Of a stretch of DNA of 53,190 bases, positions 8,472 through 16,508 are shown piece by piece. The stretch is from Candidatus Saccharimonadales bacterium. GTDB taxonomy: Bacteria; Patescibacteriota; Saccharimonadia; Saccharimonadales; DATKHC01. The translations under genes and the position numbers were made by a program. Every line of letters begins with the position of its first letter. The first letter of the stretch is position 1. The stretch lies in NCBI GenBank assembly GCA_035510465.1, contig DATKHC010000014.1, positions 1 through 53,190 on the forward strand, read 5' to 3'. Under the pieces are notes generated by a model. That model ran no database searches and was not told where the DNA came from. It worked only from the letters and a program-made list of their open reading frames with translations.

Positions 8472-8870
8472 CTAAACCACCCGAAGCCCATGGATCTTAT
8501 AACTAGGCATCTTTGTATCACTTGAAACCAGGGCTAGTCCGCTATTTATAGCATGCCATATGATCATCCTATCAAATGGGTCTTTATGTCCGGCCATTTT
8601 GGGCAATAAGTAAAATGTGGCATATTGGTCGGGTGTAGGTGTTATAACCCTAATCCCTACACCATGTATCCCAGCAATAAATTCTTCAGGAGTACGTCCG
8701 CCTAGCTCTATTCTACCCAAGGAGAATTTTAAACTTATCTCCCATACTGTAATACTGCTTATAAACTTTTCTTCCTGCCCAGATTCAATAATTGCTCTTT
8801 GGGTATTCGTTAATTTATCAGCGCTGAAACGTGCCCATAGCAATGTATGGGTGTCCAGCAGGTAATTCAT
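8472..8870 (-). CDS. vapC: VapC-family PIN-domain toxin
   Basis: YLLDTHTLLW, ISSITVWEI, HKDPFDRMII; 4-nt overlap with antitoxin. Confidence 0.92.
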   Translation of the reverse strand: MNYLLDTHTLLWARFSADKLTNTQRAIIESGQEEKFISSITVWEISLKFSLGRIELGGRTPEEFIAGIHGVGIRVITPTPDQYATFYLLPKMAGHKDPFDRMIIWHAINSGLALVSSDTKMPSYKIHGLRVV

Positions 8871-9109
8871 GATGCGAGCAGCTCTTCGTCGGTCATCTCA
8901 AAGTTATGCAATTTATATGTCCAACCCGCATCTTTGAGGTCATTTAATTTAACAGAGTAATCTGGCTGCTTGAGCTTACTTTGAGGCACAATAGTGCCCA
9001 ACGGCTTTTTATTACGTCCGTATGTTATAACCACCTCGTTGCCCCTTTTCAACTCATCAACTACTGAGGAGAAGTTTGCTTTAAATTTTGCAACCGTCAT
9101 AGTTTTCAT
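8867..9109 (-). CDS. Phd/YefM-family antitoxin
   Basis: MKTMTVAKFKANFSSVVDELKRGNEVVITYGRNKKPLG; upstream of PIN toxin. Confidence 0.88.
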   Translation of the reverse strand: MKTMTVAKFKANFSSVVDELKRGNEVVITYGRNKKPLGTIVPQSKLKQPDYSVKLNDLKDAGWTYKLHNFEMTDEELLAS

Positions 9110-9115
9110 AGCTAT

Positions 9116-9145
9116 ATAATACCAAAATCACGTTTATACTGTCAA
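9116..9145 (-). promoter_or_regulatory. Promoter TTGACA-N18-TATTAT, leaderless antitoxin mRNA
   Basis: -10 ends 6 nt before ATG 9109; no SD. Confidence 0.7.
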
Positions 9146-9157
9146 GTTGTTACTTTC

Positions 9158-9190
9158 GTGGCAAGCCATGATGGACGATGTTAGAACTAG
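9158..9190. repeat. Diverged copy of conserved-loop hairpin motif (core TGATRRACGAKGTTAGA)
   Basis: TGATGGACGATGTTAGAAC at 9169-9187 resembles the 12417 and 12963 copies; flanked by an AGCCAT/ATGGCT stem. Confidence 0.55.
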
Positions 9191-9200
9191 AATGGCTGGC

Positions 9201-9557
9201 TTAAATATTTTGTCGGAGGATTCGTGATGTACTTGCTAGCTCGCCTAAGCTAGGTAAAGTTCTTTGTGTAACAGGAACTTGTCCTGGAGCTAGGTCTATA
9301 TCAAACGCATCCACAGTGGTTCCGTTGTACTCACCGTTAATCCATCTAAGAGTTTCGCCACGTCTTATACGAACCCTCATTTCAGCAGGTACATCATTTA
9401 ATTGAAAAGTGATTATAGCTTCATTACTAATTTCTTGTTTAGTGGAAACCATGCGTGCGTCAAACGTTTCATTGTCCAAAGCGATGACTTCACCTTCCCA
9501 GTCTTCTAAAATGCTAAATTCACTCTTGCTATGCTCATACATAATCAAATTATACAT
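9201..9557 (-). CDS. Hypothetical protein (true start probably ATG 9542)
   Basis: 118-aa ORF; TATAAT lies 6 nt before the second ATG. Confidence 0.55.
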   Translation of the reverse strand: MYNLIMYEHSKSEFSILEDWEGEVIALDNETFDARMVSTKQEISNEAIITFQLNDVPAEMRVRIRRGETLRWINGEYNGTTVDAFDIDLAPGQVPVTQRTLPSLGELASTSRILRQNI

Positions 9558-9585
9558 TCAACGATAACTTTAAACATAAGAATAT

Positions 9586-9660
9586 TGGCAGGGGTGGTCG
9601 GACTCGAACCGACAGCACGACTTTTGGAGAGTCGCCGCTTACCAATTAACGGACACCCCT
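9586..9660 (-). tRNA. trnW: tRNA-Trp(CCA)
   Basis: AGGGGTG acceptor, anticodon arm CGACT-CTCCAAA-AGTCG, GTTCGAGTC T-loop, encoded CCA end. Confidence 0.95.
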
Positions 9661-9741
9661 TTCACGTTAAGCTAGTGATATCATACCCGACTTGGGTTTT
9701 GACTGCCATTTTTGATTTTAAGAGCGTTAAACAGTTCGGAT

Positions 9742-9948
9742 TTAATGTTTTCTAGGTTTAACTTCGTTTCGACCTAAGTTTTTCTTAGTCTCTGTAAATA
9801 GGACATGCTTTCGTAGCACTGGATCATACTTCTTGATACTTAACTTATCAGGAGTATTCATCTGATTCTTAGAGGTATAGTAAACTCGGTGTCCTGTTGC
9901 TTCTGAAACTAGTCCGACTAACTTTCTCTTATCGCCTTTTTTTGTCAT
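9742..9948 (-). CDS. rpmG: 50S ribosomal protein L33, Zn-free (C-minus) form
   Basis: [10 protein letters not shown]...[19 protein letters not shown]; no Cys; adjacent to tRNA-Trp. Confidence 0.93.
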
Positions 9949-9979
9949 AACGCTTTCCTTATTCGATTGTTAAAGCCTA

Positions 9980-9999
9980 ACAGATATGTTCTTATCTGT
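9980..9999. other. Inverted repeat ACAGATA-N6-TATCTGT in the tRNA-Thr/rpmG spacer
   Basis: 7-bp stem conserved in the duplicate at 14350-14369 while the loop differs (TGTTCT vs TGAGCT). Confidence 0.65.
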
Positions 10000-10007
10000 A
10001 AATATAA

Positions 10008-10082
10008 TGGAGCCGAAGACGGGGATTGAACCCGTGACCTCGTCATTACCACTGACGCGCTCTGCCACTGAGCTACTTCGGC
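10008..10082 (-). tRNA. trnT: tRNA-Thr(GGT), fully paired copy
   Basis: Acceptor GCCGAAG/CTTCGGC; anticodon arm CGTCA-GTGGTAA-TGACG; CCA end. Confidence 0.92.
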
Positions 10083-10133
10083 TTAAAAGCCATGATTCCT
10101 GATTATTTTACACTACCACAATACTTCAGGATA

Positions 10134-10793
10134 TTAATCCTCGGACAATGGTGCTTCAGGCGGATCTGGCCAACCCTCCCGCATACGTCTATTAAACTCT
10201 TCCTTCTCAAGCGGGATGTCTTTTTTAAGTAACCAGTGATGAGTTATGTCTATAGAGTAAATGGGGTTAACTTCACCTCGTAAAAGTGCAACCAAAGAAT
10301 GTACGTCTTGGTCTGCTCTCAGTAGTTGTCGTACACCAAATACGGAACCCATGGTTGTGCCGACATCTTCGCCAATCCTGGGTCTCTTTGCAGATAGAGC
10401 TATCTCCGCATCTTCTTCATTTCTAAACTCAAACTTATACTCTGATTTCTTACTTCCTGGGGCCCTTCTGGGATGTATGACAGGTATTTTGAGCTCATAC
10501 CCAAGAATGGTCATAAAATCCCTCCAACCCTCAGGAGGATCCAACAAAAGGTCCGCATCTTTAATACAGGGAAAAGTTGCGAAGTGACCTAACAAAACAT
10601 CAAACTGTCTACGATGTCTGTATAACATCTCGGCATCTACCTTAAGCGTTGATTGAACACCAGAGGCAAACGCGAACTCACCCTCCTTGAAAGCTCCGGC
10701 ACTTAAAAAAGCTTCCCATGTTTCTTCAGTGGTTCGCTGGCTATCAAAGCCCGCTTTTTCAAGATCAGCACATACTGGTATTAGATCACTCAT
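10134..10793 (-). CDS. Type I phosphoribosyltransferase, orotate-PRTase (PyrE)-like
   Basis: FAFASGVQSTLKVD resembles the PyrE F.L.SG..S..Y.D motif; PRPP loop RIGEDVGTTMGS. Confidence 0.7.
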   Translation of the reverse strand: MSDLIPVCADLEKAGFDSQRTTEETWEAFLSAGAFKEGEFAFASGVQSTLKVDAEMLYRHRRQFDVLLGHFATFPCIKDADLLLDPPEGWRDFMTILGYELKIPVIHPRRAPGSKKSEYKFEFRNEEDAEIALSAKRPRIGEDVGTTMGSVFGVRQLLRADQDVHSLVALLRGEVNPIYSIDITHHWLLKKDIPLEKEEFNRRMREGWPDPPEAPLSED

Positions 10794-11221
10794 AGATTCC
10801 TTACAAGGTTACAAAATTCTTGAGAAAACTTAAACTTTAAAAGATCTGCTGCTTTGTTCGGCGAAAACCAACCAAACTTATCCTCTCGAATGTCTTTAGC
10901 TAACTCTATCAGTTTCGTATTGGCCACATTCACAGAGTAAACCATAGACACTAGTGGCAAAAGGACGCCATTCACTGGAATCGTTATATTCGTTAAAACT
11001 CCCATTAGTTGTTTGGGTTTGCCAATATAACTAATGTTCAATTCTTCTTTGAGTTCTCTTTTTGGGGTTTGAGTGAACGTTTCACCCGGGTCCATTCTTC
11101 CACCTGGTAAGTCCCAGTGAGAGGGTATATGCCCCCACTCTGGTATGTGGACCATAAAAATTTCGTCTATACCATTTCGGATAAGCCCTTTGATATTAAT
11201 CTGAAATATTTGTTCTGCCAT
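10790..11221 (-). CDS. NUDIX hydrolase
   Basis: WDLPGGRMDPGETFTQTPKRELKEELNI Nudix box. Confidence 0.88.
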   Translation of the reverse strand: MAEQIFQINIKGLIRNGIDEIFMVHIPEWGHIPSHWDLPGGRMDPGETFTQTPKRELKEELNISYIGKPKQLMGVLTNITIPVNGVLLPLVSMVYSVNVANTKLIELAKDIREDKFGWFSPNKAADLLKFKFSQEFCNLVRNL

Positions 11222-11273
11222 TTACGCTAATCGTTATTTTTTATATAAATCTGTATAAGGGGTTAGGATTTTA

Positions 11274-11701
11274 TTAGTCAATTCCAGCATATACAATGCC
11301 ACCTAAATAGCACTCAATTGCTAATCTGCTTGCGTCGAAGTGCGGCTGAGGAAGATCTCTTGGGTTTGACCATAAGATCTCTTCACACTTATCAGGCTCC
11401 AATATTTTCGGTTCTCCGTCGAACACTTCTGCTAATAAAATAATCGATATAAAATGCACTCCTTCGGTTCTAAACGTTTCCAGATTATTAGTAACAGCGA
11501 TTACTCTTGGTTTAACGATAGTTATACCGTGCTCTTCCTCAACTTCGCGAACAGCGCCATCTTCAAACGTTTCGCCAAATTTTAAACTTCCGCCGGAATT
11601 GAATAGAATGGAGCGTGGCTACTCTTTCTTTTACCAATAAGAACTTCGCCCTGCTCGTTTTTTATAATTACACCTAATCCTACTCCGGGCGTTTTAGCCA
11701 T
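11274..11701 (-). pseudogene. NUDIX hydrolase with a one-base frameshift near 11592-11597
   Basis: ATG 11701 gives MAKTPGVGLGVIIKNEQGEVLIGKRKSSHAPFYSIP; adding one base restores GGSLKFGETFEDGAVREVEEEHG, continuing into ORF 11274-11459. Confidence 0.85.
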
Positions 11702-12029
11702 AATGCAATTTGCTTAGTTAAACAACACTGTCTTGAATATATCATTATATCCCGGCTCCTCACTAATTCAGTGCCTGAAACACTTCAATACCTAATCTAC
11801 CGTTATAAGCAGATGGCCTACGCAACGAGTAATTACTTCAAAACTGTCAGTTTGCTTATTACATGGTTCCAAAGTTTACGGAAATGCTTATCAAGCTGCT
11901 TGCTGCTTCATCGCTGTCTACGAAAGCATCTACCGGGCCTAACACGGCATTACTAACGGTGGCCGATTGTTCTTGAGTCAAAGTTATATTATTGTTACGC
12001 AAGCAGACAATCAAATGTGTCTTCTTGAC

Positions 12030-12320
12030 TTACCGGGAATGATCTTCTTTGTGTTTTTCCTGCCACTCCTTGATTTTAGCCAAATCTTTTCCAAGAGCCT
12101 TTGCTACCAACTTCTCAACGATCTCTTTAGCCTTTGACTCATCAACACCCTTCTCGTCGAGAACTAGACGCAGCTTGCTTAGCTTGAATGAGACTTTTTT
12201 AACTGACCAAATTAATGTCTCGTCAATTTTTTCCTCTGGAATACCAAGCTCAACTAACTTCTTTGTCCACTTTGCTTTTTTCTCTTCATCCATTTCTTTC
12301 ATATTATCTTTGTCCCACAT
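12030..12320 (-). CDS. Small highly charged helical protein, hypothetical
   Basis: 96 aa; SD AGGAG; internal repeat LVELGIPEEKIDE / LDEKGVDESKAKE. Confidence 0.65.
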   Translation of the reverse strand: MWDKDNMKEMDEEKKAKWTKKLVELGIPEEKIDETLIWSVKKVSFKLSKLRLVLDEKGVDESKAKEIVEKLVAKALGKDLAKIKEWQEKHKEDHSR

Positions 12321-12408
12321 AATTTCTCCTGTTCTGGTTTATTACTTAACTCACTTAAGTTAACCACGTCTTTCATGCTATTAGCCTGTATAAAAATCAA
12401 AAGTTCTG

Positions 12409-12441
12409 GTGCAGCGTGATGAACGAGGTTAGAGTGCTACT
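12409..12441. repeat. 33-bp repeat / conserved-loop hairpin, copy A
   Basis: GTGCAGCGTGATGAACGAGGTTAGAGTGCTACT; 30/33 identical to 12955-12987. Confidence 0.85.
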
Positions 12442-12449
12442 ACAAACTA

Positions 12450-12941
12450 CTATAGTGGGAGTTCTCTAACTTCACAAAACCTTGGGGTAAACCTTTCACT
12501 TTCGTCCGTATAAACACCAAGTTCTTGGCAAATGGCGGCTATAAGAAAAGCGTGTGTAATCCAAATTTTTTCAATAGGTGGTTTTTCAATTATTGATTTA
12601 GCTGCATTTATAGTTGCTTCTGGAGGACGCCTTGCAGCCAATGCCTCCCGAACTTGCTCATCACTCAACCCACCCTTTTCCTCGTTAAGCTCTGGATATA
12701 TAGATAGTCTCCGAAACCCTGCAATAATTGCTGTTTCTTGTGTGCGCCGCATCATAGTAACGGCCACTGGCTCTGTAGCTACATCTATACCAAACCGCAC
12801 AGCCAATAATCCTCCTAGTTCTGAGGACTGTTCTCTTCCTTTTGGCATTAAAGGAGCTTCAGTATTGCCAAATGCTGGCGTACCATAGTTTTCGTAATTA
12901 TTGGCCTCTGATAGACCATGTCTTGCAACAAGTTTTGACAT
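12450..12941 (-). CDS. Histidine phosphatase (PGM superfamily)
   Basis: LVARHG catalytic motif, RRTQETA, WITH. Confidence 0.85.
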   Translation of the reverse strand: MSKLVARHGLSEANNYENYGTPAFGNTEAPLMPKGREQSSELGGLLAVRFGIDVATEPVAVTMMRRTQETAIIAGFRRLSIYPELNEEKGGLSDEQVREALAARRPPEATINAAKSIIEKPPIEKIWITHAFLIAAICQELGVYTDESERFTPRFCEVRELPL

Positions 12942-12954
12942 ATTACAAATATCT

Positions 12955-12987
12955 GTGCAGCGTGATAAACGAGGTTAGAACGCTACT
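12955..12987. repeat. 33-bp repeat / conserved-loop hairpin, copy B
   Basis: GTGCAGCGTGATAAACGAGGTTAGAACGCTACT; on the minus strand GTAGCGT pairs with ACGCTGC. Confidence 0.85.
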
Positions 12988-13004
12988 GATTAATGAGCAT
13001 ACAA

Positions 13005-13331
13005 TTATAGCTTCTTAAAAAATAGCTTTTTAGATTTCGGGTTGAGCACGGTTGAATTTGTATTGGTTCCAGAATTGCCCCGCCATTCATCCAGTTGTTC
13101 TGTCTCACTTGGAGCGCCAACTATAGAACGAATACGCTGAGGTGTTGTCTCTTCCATAGGGCTGTAGCTAATCTCATCTGTGACAGTTTCCATAACCGCA
13201 TTGAGTACGCCTATTTTTCCACTAGATAAGGCTGTTACTTCATCTAACAGTTCTGGAAAAATCTGTAGCTGCATAGCAAAAGTTCTTGCTGCTTGTTCAA
13301 ACGATAGAACTCGTTGTCTCGCTTGCTCCAT
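13005..13331 (-). CDS. Hypothetical protein (ORFan)
   Basis: 108-aa ORF with its own promoter. Confidence 0.55.
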   Translation of the reverse strand: MEQARQRVLSFEQAARTFAMQLQIFPELLDEVTALSSGKIGVLNAVMETVTDEISYSPMEETTPQRIRSIVGAPSETEQLDEWRGNSGTNTNSTVLNPKSKKLFFKKL

Positions 13332-13340
13332 ATTATCTAT

Positions 13341-13369
13341 ACTGTAGCATATCCGTAACCGCTAGTCAA
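13341..13369 (-). promoter_or_regulatory. Promoter TTGACT-N17-(TGc)TACAGT
   Basis: 9 nt upstream of ATG 13331. Confidence 0.6.
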
Positions 13370-13471
13370 GTTGGTGCTCCTGAATTCTAGCCCGAAACGC
13401 AATTAAAAGAGGACATCTCACTAAGTTCCGTACACTAGGAGTTACTAAGCAACTAGTAAAGGAGAAGTGAA

Positions 13472-13726
13472 ATGTCCCATAGTCATCTTACTCGTGATCA
13501 ACGTAGTGAGCTAGGTATCCTAAAGAGTGCTGGTTACTCACAACAAGATATTGCTCACCTCATAGGTGTCCATCCTAGTACTGTTAGTAGAGAGATAGCT
13601 CGCTGTAGAACAAATCTACAGCTATGCCGATCTACTTTGCTCACCCCTACCATTCATGGAAGAGAGGTACTAACGAGAACACCAATGGCTTACTTAGACA
13701 GTACTTCCCAAAGAGAACAGCCTTAG
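13472..13726 (+). pseudogene. IS30 transposase N-terminal HTH fragment
   Basis: SHLTRDQRSEL...SQQDIAHLIGVHPSTVSREIAR (HTH_38-like); SD AAGGAG. Confidence 0.85.
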
Positions 13727-13848
13727 CTCATGTTACCCAAGGTCAGCTTGACCAAGCAGTTACACTACTTAATACTAGACCCAGGAAACGACTAGGCTAC
13801 CGAACTCCACGAGAAGTCTTCACTAAGTCTAATTGCAATTCGAACTAG
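13624..13848 (+). pseudogene. IS30 transposase C-terminal fragment (different frame)
   Basis: YFAHPYHSWKRGTNENTNGLLRQYFPK...LNTRPRKRLGYRTP. Confidence 0.9.
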
Positions 13849-14168: not shown

Positions 14169-14250
14169 GTTGCAGACGGAGAGCGTGGACAGTGGGACGC
14201 TTAACGCTAGTAGATGTAGTAGTATCTTGTGGCATATCTTCTAGGTATAG
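14161..14250 (-). pseudogene. Probable 3' remnant of a HicB-like antitoxin
   Basis: LYLEDMPQDTTTSTSVKRPTVHALRLQRV*; the stop overlaps the hicA GTG; LYLE resembles the HicB EAIELYLE motif (inference). Confidence 0.5.
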
Positions 14251-14318
14251 TAAACTCGATGTCCACTTTCCTTGGACACCAAACCTACTAATTTTCTCTT
14301 ATCACCTTTTTTAGCCAT
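14241..14318 (-). pseudogene. rpmG: Truncated second copy of rpmG (25 codons, then TAG)
   Basis: [25 protein letters not shown] vs intact [28 protein letters not shown]. Confidence 0.92.
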
Positions 14319-14349
14319 AACAACCTACGTCTTTAATTGTTAAAGGTTA

Positions 14350-14377: not shown

Positions 14378-14452
14378 TGGAGTCGTTGACGAGGATTGAA
14401 CTCGTGACCCCCTCCTTACCATGGAGGTGCTCTACCACTGAGCTACAACTGC
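14378..14452 (-). tRNA. trnT: tRNA-Thr(GGT), second copy with two acceptor-stem mismatches
   Basis: Anticodon arm CCTCC-ATGGTAA-GGAGG; acceptor 5' GCAGTTG vs 3' CAACGAC leaves C2:A71 and A3:G70 unpaired. Confidence 0.85.
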
Positions 14453-16421: not shown

Positions 16422-16508
16422 TGGTGCAGGGAGAGGGAGTCGAACCCCCGAAGACATAAAGTCGTCTGATTTACAGTCAGATGCGTTTGACCACTTCGCT
16501 ATCCCTGC
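16422..16508 (-). tRNA. trnY: tRNA-Tyr(GTA)
   Basis: Acceptor GCAGGGA/TCCCTGC, arm TCTGA-CTGTAAA-TCAGA, long variable arm, ACCA end. Confidence 0.95.

Follow-up and report, generated by a model that had tools for sequence, protein, structure and literature searches.

What are the three copies of a short, conserved sequence that follow open reading frames (ORFs) in a contig of a Candidatus Saccharimonadales bacterium? The window analysed here is a 53,190-nt stretch of this contig (DATKHC010000014.1), and all sites are numbered on the whole stretch. The core TCTAACMTCGTYYATCA occurs on its minus strand in three places, 9169-9185 (copy C), 12417-12433 (copy B) and 12963-12979 (copy A), and each copy begins a few nucleotides past the stop codon of an ORF on the same strand. 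An earlier interpretation made from the letters of the window (the sequence-only reading) had reported these three copies, and three core matches were never reached in 100 dinucleotide shuffles. It had taken them for a hairpin with a conserved loop and an exchanged stem, arranged with genes in the manner of integron cassettes and possibly serving as recombination sites. The feature is real; the hairpin argument is wrong, whereas the intuition of a cassette or recombination site is right. On balance, the copies are probably the end-sites of gene cassettes, resembling an attP arm and mimicking tRNA ends, which were most likely placed by large serine recombinases (LSRs) specific for the 3′-ends of tRNA genes.

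Sequence conservation of the site and absence of a hairpin

Relatives searched with a loose pattern yielded homologues whose similarity extends well past the supposed loop. Further copies, which the sequence-only reading had proposed to look for in related genomes, were found with a covariance model that used primary sequence only and was built from ten copies: this model gave one to five matches in each of 95 genomes, out of 401 from the same order. Sixty-three distinct homologous copies were aligned over 43 columns with zero gaps, and their consensus, AGTA[AG]nGGTTCTAACyTCGTnnATnAyGCTGyACCA, has a fixed length of about 40 bases. The earlier count of three copies holds for the window, but it is an undercount for the genome, which was searched with a hidden Markov model derived from the 63 copies. 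An eight-site array, in which an ORF-site unit is repeated eight times, lies on the minus strand of contig C22 (11171-16095), two sites lie behind tRNA-Arg(GCG) on contig C9, one lies behind tRNA-Gly(CCC) on contig C23, and one site of the Gly type is present on contig C21. In the window itself, a weak site-like match on the plus strand at 1608-1627 (GCGTTCTAACCTGATTATCTG, E=4) may be a degenerate member or a chance match. Among the sampled genomes of other orders of the phylum the site is rare; the copies found there retain the core GGTTCTAACnTCGTCnATCACG with the tail changed to GGAGCCA or GAGAGCCA, and a copy with the latter tail lies about 1 kb behind tRNA-Gln.

The stems on which the hairpin had been based are present in the window (GTAGCGT/ACGCTGC in copy A, GTAGC/GCTGC in copy B and AGCCAT/ATGGCT in copy C), but they do not represent an exchanged stem around a conserved loop. 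The stem of copy C sits in another register (alignment columns 4-9, compared with 9-15 for the A/B stem), and its altered 3′ arm can be explained by the fact that this arm is the tail (TGCCA) of the adjacent tRNA-Trp. Across the 63 copies, the supposed 3′ arm (AyGCTGy) is itself a conserved sequence that continues into ACCA. The check on covariation proposed in the sequence-only reading was negative: the A/B stem is paired in 65.8% of cells and its shuffled counterparts in 64.3%, and roughly 70% of the copies leave two of the seven pairs unpaired. Complementarity to the core is no higher for a copy's own upstream flank than for the flank of a foreign copy (p=0.26 and 0.20), and the minimum-free-energy hairpin is missing from several homologues. 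On these grounds, a structured RNA or a folded single-stranded DNA recognition element was rejected.

Other short elements were likewise discarded. No Rfam family was matched at the sites in either the gathering or the E-value mode, so the refutation that such a match could have brought did not arise, and no tRNA was called there by ARAGORN; a known RNA family or a tRNA was rejected accordingly. The opinion that the element is not a Rho-independent terminator stands, because the stem is weak and interrupted and is followed, without a U-tract, by ACCA and then by a promoter or leader. A promoter or sigma-factor motif, a REP/RAYT element, the ends of IS200/IS605 elements and a DnaA box were ruled unfit by spacing, copy number or orientation. 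The sites are also not canonical attC sites, as had been supposed, since they show neither an R″/R′ pair nor covariation: only TTCTAAC resembles R″ (RYYYAAC), and the R′-like (GTTRRRY) partner GTTAGAAC is present in few flanks and at varying distance. Inverted copies of the box (GTTAGAAC or GTCAGAAC) were observed 3-30 nt past CCA in flanks L025, L027, L043 and L056, and in L031, L035, L042 and L065; their spacing is variable, and they are sometimes located inside a terminator-like hairpin.

It could still be imagined that the site acts at the RNA level, either as a tRNA-like 3′ hairpin with ACCA that punctuates or stabilises the cassette mRNAs, for example through tRNA-maturation processing, or as an unusual terminator. 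On the coding strand, stop codons are indeed directly followed by the sites, an interrupted acceptor-like stem ([G/A]UA..GU with Ay..UG[C/U], then ACCA) can be drawn, and a (CA)TAAGC motif is also found behind several genuine tRNA genes. However, the folding data above, the missing U-tract and the absence of an Rfam match all oppose an action of this kind, which would also leave unexplained the matching of site tails to those of the head tRNAs, the cassette boundaries and the antisense codon-phase conservation described below; we regard it as very improbable.

Cassette arrays behind tRNA genes

The position of the sites relative to stop codons, which had also been proposed for examination, is consistent throughout: every site stands at the end of a same-strand ORF, whose stop codon usually falls within site columns 7-20 or just upstream. 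In other genomes such ORF-site units form same-strand arrays with one-gene spacing (for example, G161:C3, G277:C12, G072:C25 and G024:C12/C13, given as genome and contig). At 20 loci, a same-strand tRNA gene precedes the first site in view by 255-1862 nt; this head is tRNA-Tyr at eight loci, tRNA-Arg at nine, tRNA-Gly(CCC) at one and tRNA-Trp at one, to which is added the A/B pair of the window behind tRNA-Thr. The dinucleotide of the site agrees with that of the head tRNA at 17 of the 18 loci headed by tRNA-Tyr, tRNA-Arg or tRNA-Trp. Site columns 38-39 are CA behind tRNA-Tyr (8/8; tRNA tail ..CTGCACCA, site tail GCACCA), TA behind tRNA-Arg (8/9; ..GTACCA in the tRNA, GTACCA in the site) and TG behind tRNA-Trp (1/1; window copy C, whose tail ..GGCTTGCCA copies the ..TGCCA of the neighbouring tRNA).

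The boundaries of the units can be located by comparing genomes. A 686-nt cassette with 76% identity is common to G017, where it directly follows a site (..GCTGTACCA joined to ATTCGTTTATGC..), and G056, where it directly follows the tRNA-Arg(GCG) gene (..GGGTGTACCA joined to TTTCGCTTATGC..); homology begins at the common TGTACCA, and the G056 copy closes with its own site. At the ends of paralogous cassettes in G024, homology stops exactly past ..GTACCA. Within one genus, tRNA-Tyr is followed by four cassettes in G161, at once by a terminator hairpin in G036 and by the next tRNA in G133. The units measure 0.25-2 kb, mostly contain one gene and often carry their own promoters. Their diverse, accessory cargo includes GNAT acetyltransferases, methyltransferases, a glyoxalase, YecM, NUDIX proteins, a histidine phosphatase, MazF and many ORFans, and no recombinase was found among the approximately 90 array ORFs scanned. 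The gene-plus-site layout that had been likened to integron cassettes is thus a real cassette architecture, with further copies in the genomes of the order, and the idea of a recombination site is borne out, because the cassette boundaries and the anchoring at tRNA genes show that the site behaves as a site of insertion or recombination.

In the model proposed here, a small gene cassette has been inserted in each case, and the copy marks its distal end. A unit consists of a short leader or promoter, an ORF, the stop codon inside the site and the site itself, and units are stacked serially behind a tRNA gene, the 3′-end of which would be the primary insertion point, although each site could replace the tRNA in that role.

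The arrays might instead be inert scars, that is, large tRNA-inserted islands that have decayed to one gene and a displaced att copy and that have neither cassette mobility nor a present function. The degenerate tail of site A (CACAG), the IS30 remnant and the broken NUDIX gene in the same island of the window, and the LSR elements of 6-9 kb that are proximal to two arrays would suit such decay. Nevertheless, a site of fixed length with stop codons packed inside is conserved across dozens of families, eight one-gene units stand in a row on contig C22, the histidine-phosphatase cassette keeps the same tight layout at 39% amino acid identity in another family, and one cassette is found behind two different left partners (the site in G017 and tRNA-Arg in G056). 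Decay to scars is therefore quite unlikely, and the cassettes may still be mobile.

The array on contig C22 has a divergent Replic_Relax (PF13814) gene as its upstream neighbour, its first cassette encodes an excisionase-like helix-turn-helix protein, and the contig ends in an IS3/IS30-type transposase tail; the array may sit on a mobile element. The Replic_Relax protein was rejected as the enzyme, because it is not linked to arrays elsewhere and is present in site-free genomes too. A sequence of another kind, CATAACCATCATTATG, occurs three times about 700 nt apart at G053:C1:605403-606810 and could mark another cassette-type array with a different junction.

In the window, the three cassettes (Table 1) show the same organization. 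Cassette C is inserted straight after the CCA of tRNA-Trp, and its ORF probably starts at the second ATG. Cassette B starts immediately past site A, and its homologue, with 39% amino acid identity, is located in the tRNA-Tyr array of G072, where the histidine-phosphatase cassette begins 11-13 nt past one site and closes with the following one. The left junction of cassette A follows a lone ..GGAGCACCA tail at about 13373-13381 (a ..GCACCA tail); the body of the site that preceded this cassette was apparently lost beside the neighbouring transposase remnant, which we assign to the IS30 family from motifs in its translations. Site A itself ends in ..CGCTGCACAG in place of ..CACCA.

Table 1. Positions of the sites, cassettes and adjoining features in the window
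Feature	Position	Strand	Description
Site A	12953..12994	-	columns 1-42; closes the cassette of ORF 13331-13005; 37.1 bits
Site B	12407..12448	-	35.4 bits
Site C	9159..9200	-	same core; tail ..GGCTTGCCA; 27.3 bits
Cassette A	12953..13372	-	promoter-like TTGACT..TATAGATAAT, ORF 13331-13005, site A
Cassette B	12407..12952	-	11-nt leader, histidine-phosphatase ORF 12941-12450 (His_Phos_1), site B; complete unit
Cassette C	9159..9585	-	own extended -10 promoter, ORF 9557-9201, site C
tRNA-Trp(CCA)	9586..9660	-	head of cassette C; putative attB-type partner in the favoured reading
tRNA-Tyr(GTA)	16422..16508	-	tail ..CCCTGCACCA; 3.4 kb upstream of A/B, with rearranged DNA between
IS30-family transposase remnant (presumed)	13472..13848	+	two broken frames; adjoins left junction of cassette A; from translations

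Sites A and B have tails of the Tyr type, yet the nearest upstream tRNA is tRNA-Thr(GGT). Two diverged tRNA-Thr(GGT) genes (10008-10082 and 14378-14452) share a nearly identical 50-nt 3′ flank, and the copy at 14 kb is then followed by a truncated rpmG (14243-14330). The approximately 4.3 kb between them, which comprise a HicA-like gene, the IS30 remnant, cassettes A and B and NUDIX genes (one of them broken), look like an island that was inserted together with a duplicated tRNA-Thr-rpmG′ unit. Because sites A and B combine Tyr-type tails with a place in this tRNA-Thr-bounded island, they were probably relocated from behind tRNA-Tyr, and the tRNA-Tyr(GTA) gene of the window is likely to have been their original head. 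Consensus promoters (TTGACA-N18-TATTAT; TGTATAAT) precede cassette or neighbour genes at 9100-9160 and 9540-9585, from which the transcripts would be leaderless or nearly so, and no Shine-Dalgarno sequence was seen upstream of several cassette ORFs. A pair of Phd/YefM antitoxin and PIN (VapC) toxin genes (8472-9109) lies immediately downstream of cassette C.

Large serine recombinases as the candidate enzymes

The conservation of the site has a 3-nt period (columns 5, 8, 11 ... 41 are conserved, and 4, 7, 13, 22, 28 and 31 are free; p=0.03). Read antisense to the cargo, the site gives W[CY]S[VI][IM]xEVRT[LI]L and then a stop codon. This antisense frame contains 6 stop codons, compared with 13-117 in the other five frames, and its mean BLOSUM score is 2.52, compared with 0.83-1.58. 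An intact antisense gene that ends in this peptide was rejected, because in approximately 170 copies from genomes and metagenomes the frame around the peptide stays open for no more than 12-115 codons and often has no start codon; a single case of 781 codons is the frame of a neighbouring gene running on. No match to an antisense peptide gene was found in viral contigs.

The ends of LSR genes offer a precedent for such a frame. Nine LSR genes are present in the genome of the window, and one to six per genome in 26 of 31 other genomes checked. Among the complete LSR frames from other genomes, 12 of 14 end antisense inside a tRNA or tRNA-like 3′-end (for example, ..LEWYTRRDSNARPP.. over tRNA-Arg(GCG), and ..SWLRGLDSNQRPSG and stop over tRNA-Asn). 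Of the nine in the window's genome, two overlap real tRNAs (Gly-GCC and Leu-TAA), and at least three overlap pseudo-tRNA ends or site-like tails (for example, ..AWLGLLDSNQT and stop over GGTCTGGTTCGAATCCAGTAATCCCAGCCA). The W in these LSR tails is the antisense of CCA, and the common flank in which ACCA is joined to AGCATAAGCA reads antisense as ..AYA followed by W.., in the same frame as the site peptide. In both G161:C1 and G024:C12, an LSR abuts tRNA-Arg(GCG), and at 9.1 kb and 6.6 kb downstream, respectively, the strand of the tRNA carries TA-type sites with the matching W-Y frame. LSR and Replic_Relax genes were also seen side by side in the window's genome (C12:2226-4087) and in G168:C9:42555-43827, which suggests that this pair is a recurrent backbone of integrative elements in Saccharibacteria.

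The enzyme in the proposed mechanism would be an LSR specific for tRNA 3′-ends, and the last 10-22 codons of its gene would lie antisense across the attachment site of the same enzyme. The site would thus encode, or would once have encoded, the C-terminal tail W[CY]S[VI][IM]xEVRTLL of the LSR with its stop codon. After integration, the LSR body would stay by the tRNA, and the site arm would be carried to the far border. That the sites look coding but are never attached to a gene could be explained by this parting of the LSR body from the site arm. The window cassettes, which lack an LSR, would be remnants without this gene or units that an LSR moves in trans.

The spacing of the site provides a second line of evidence. 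The T-loop-like box (GGTTCTAAC in the site and GGTTCGAAT in the tRNA) is separated from the tail dinucleotide by 15 nt in 63 of 63 sites (GTTCTAACy, 15 nt, yA and CCA in the ungapped alignment), compared with 10 nt in a tRNA (G53-C61, 10 nt, N72N73 and CCA). For site B, the box is at 12427-12435, and the 15-nt spacer leads to the dinucleotide CA (12410-12411) and CCA (12407-12409), whereas in the tRNA-Tyr of the window the corresponding parts are GTTCGACTC, CCTCTCCCTG, CA and CCA. The same difference of +5 is found between the Gly-type site on contig C21 (GTTTGAAAT, 15 nt, CA, CCA) and tRNA-Gly(GCC) (GTTTGAATC, 10 nt, CA, CCA), the latter being a tRNA that is abutted by an LSR. In serine integrases, the motif for the zinc-ribbon domain lies 5 bp nearer the centre in attB than in attP (PMC3783163). 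Judged from the bases presumed to be contacted by the protein, the +5 spacing of the site relative to the tRNA agrees with this half-site rule. The central dinucleotide, at the predicted crossover position, is also identical in the site and the head tRNA at all but one of the 18 loci, as LSR partners require, and the requirement for a common dinucleotide would account for the variation of column 38 with tRNA identity. We interpret the site as a double-strand DNA half-site that mimics a tRNA gene's 3′-end and is made up of the T-loop-like box, the spacer, the acceptor-strand-like AyGCTG, the tRNA-matched dinucleotide (CA for Tyr, TA for Arg and TG for Trp) and CCA. It would correspond to an attP-type P arm kept in attR, with the tRNA as attB and the crossover at or near tRNA positions 72-73.

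Several points weigh against the action of LSRs on the sites. The window contains no LSR, nor do most arrays have one as a neighbour, and the site-rich genomes G277 and G056, both of which are incomplete assemblies, gave no PF00239 match. No LSR open frame that still bears the peptide of the site family was found. Of 20 genomes without the site family, 16 have LSRs as well, so that presence and absence do not correlate, although this comparison is uninformative because LSRs are nearly ubiquitous. At locus L049, a CA-type site stands behind a TA-type tRNA. The dyad around the proposed centre is weak, consisting only of a short TGC..GCA, and the right-hand flanks, which would be the P′/B′ arm, are heterogeneous (AGCATAAGCA, N5-CTTATGyTT or promoters). 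Finally, canonical LSRs recombine only attP with attB and do not reuse attL or attR, so serial stacking would need attB to be regenerated or the rules to be relaxed as in staphylococcal cassette chromosome (SCC) elements.

The same cassette system could be served by a different enzyme, namely the single Xer-type recombinase, as in IMEX or the pdif modules of Acinetobacter, or an unrecognised integron-like recombinase. No tyrosine recombinase other than Xer is present, and all genomes checked contain it; many junctions have GCATAA or TTATGyTTwAA right past CCA, which resemble Xer-binding arms; the arrays usually have no recombinase nearby; and two site-rich genomes gave no LSR match. However, a dif-like dyad is lacking from the site, and a search for a single-copy dif sequence of that form gave no candidate. 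The sequence AAGCATAA/TTATGCTT occurs 85 times in the genome, the antisense of AGCATAAGCA is the in-frame continuation of the site peptide, and both the +5 spacing and the codon-like conservation are left unexplained by Xer or another such enzyme, which we consider possible but of low probability. The Xer-type gene, of which there is one per genome and never near an array, scores 137 bits on the integron-integrase model, under its cut-off of 265. A dedicated tyrosine integrase was rejected because of this single gene away from the arrays and because the additional integrases of G017 and G029 lack the peptide at their ends; a dif-like Xer site was rejected for want of a consistent candidate. 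In the window's genome, a motif CCA-N5-CTTATGTTTA[AT]A follows tRNA-Trp, tRNA-Val(TAC) and tRNA-Pro(GGG) (for example, window 9570-9585, C21:44708 and C23:32738), and AGCATAAGCA, its reverse, follows many sites and tRNAs elsewhere. The motif can be likened to an Xer-binding arm (TTATGTTAAAT), and it also reads as ..AYA followed by W.. in the antisense LSR frame.

Placement by tRNA-specific LSRs can be extended, as a tentative proposal that we regard as doubtful, to an integron-like platform for gene capture driven by LSRs in place of IntI, in which tRNA ends serve as attB, one-gene cassettes with a pseudo-tRNA arm are moved in trans, and the tail of the recombinase is swapped. In the integrated state, the LSR would have a tail antisense to the tRNA (for example, WYTRQDSNL and stop), and in the excised state, a tail encoded by the site (for example, WYSIINEVRTLL.. 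and stop). If true, the swap would be a built-in sensor of the integration state, possibly providing directionality control without a separate factor.

Relation to known systems and significance

In literature searches, no published description of this site or cassette system was found, and the system is best filed with tandem insertion by serine recombinases, here yielding integron-like arrays. The attP and attB sites of LSRs such as those of LI/A118, Bxb1 and phiC31 (PMC3783163) are likewise short and defined by sequence, with the distal motif 5 bp farther out in the arm of the element and a central dinucleotide common to both partners, and LSR genes are abundant in the genomes studied here and abut the target. 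In contrast to those systems, the 3′-ends of many different tRNAs are targeted here, the last codons of the recombinase overlap the site, and the units, as judged from their gene content, are mostly recombinase-less, 0.25-2 kb in size and arranged in arrays.

Resemblance to integrons (IntI, attI and attC) and to clusters of attC sites lacking integron integrases (CALINs) is found in the same-orientation arrays of single genes, the site overlapping the stop codon, the fixed primary insertion point at the head and the cargo spectrum (GNAT, glyoxalase, methyltransferase, toxin-antitoxin and ORFans). Unlike integrons, the arrays have no integron integrase at their head, the lone Xer-type gene lying elsewhere in the genome, and no R″/R′ pair; the site is conserved in sequence rather than recognised as a folded strand, the cassettes often carry promoters, and a tRNA 3′-end serves as the primary site.

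Tandem insertion by serine recombinases with direct repeats that copy the target end is known from SCC elements, in which CcrAB acts at the 3′-end of rlmH/orfX and pseudo-SCC elements lack ccr, and from the ssrA-specific islands of Dehalococcoides. As in these islands, recombinase-less members occur within composite arrays and the 3′-end of a conserved gene is the target; however, those islands measure several to tens of kilobases, whereas the present units contain a single gene, target tRNAs and carry a tRNA-mimic repeat with an insertion in the spacer. Islands at tRNA genes of the Islander type share insertion at the tRNA 3′-end, a displaced or duplicated fragment of the tRNA end at the far border and tandem accretion, but they are usually built by tyrosine integrases, are large and have an exact repeat of the tRNA end; here a tyrosine integrase is absent, and minute units close with a conserved pseudo-end with +5 spacing. 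In the archaeal integrases of the SSV type, which are tyrosine recombinases, attP lies inside the int gene, and the gene is split near its N-terminus upon integration. The recombinase frame here similarly crosses a tRNA-derived att site, so that integration alters the gene, but the exchange would be confined to the final 10-22 codons of a serine recombinase.

For annotation, the sites mark the borders of cassettes and explain short, spurious antisense ORFs. Saccharibacteria have genomes of approximately 1 Mb with few recognised mobile elements, and their accessory genes are nonetheless located in cassette arrays behind tRNA genes; with a defined site anatomy and a candidate class of enzyme, what would be called a hypervariable region becomes a testable mechanism of gene capture. 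If LSRs are responsible, they would be natural serine integrases that hit many tRNA genes through a common T-loop box, with an attachment site embedded in the coding end of the recombinase itself, and these uncultivated bacteria would be a source of compact, sequence-defined pairs of att sites.

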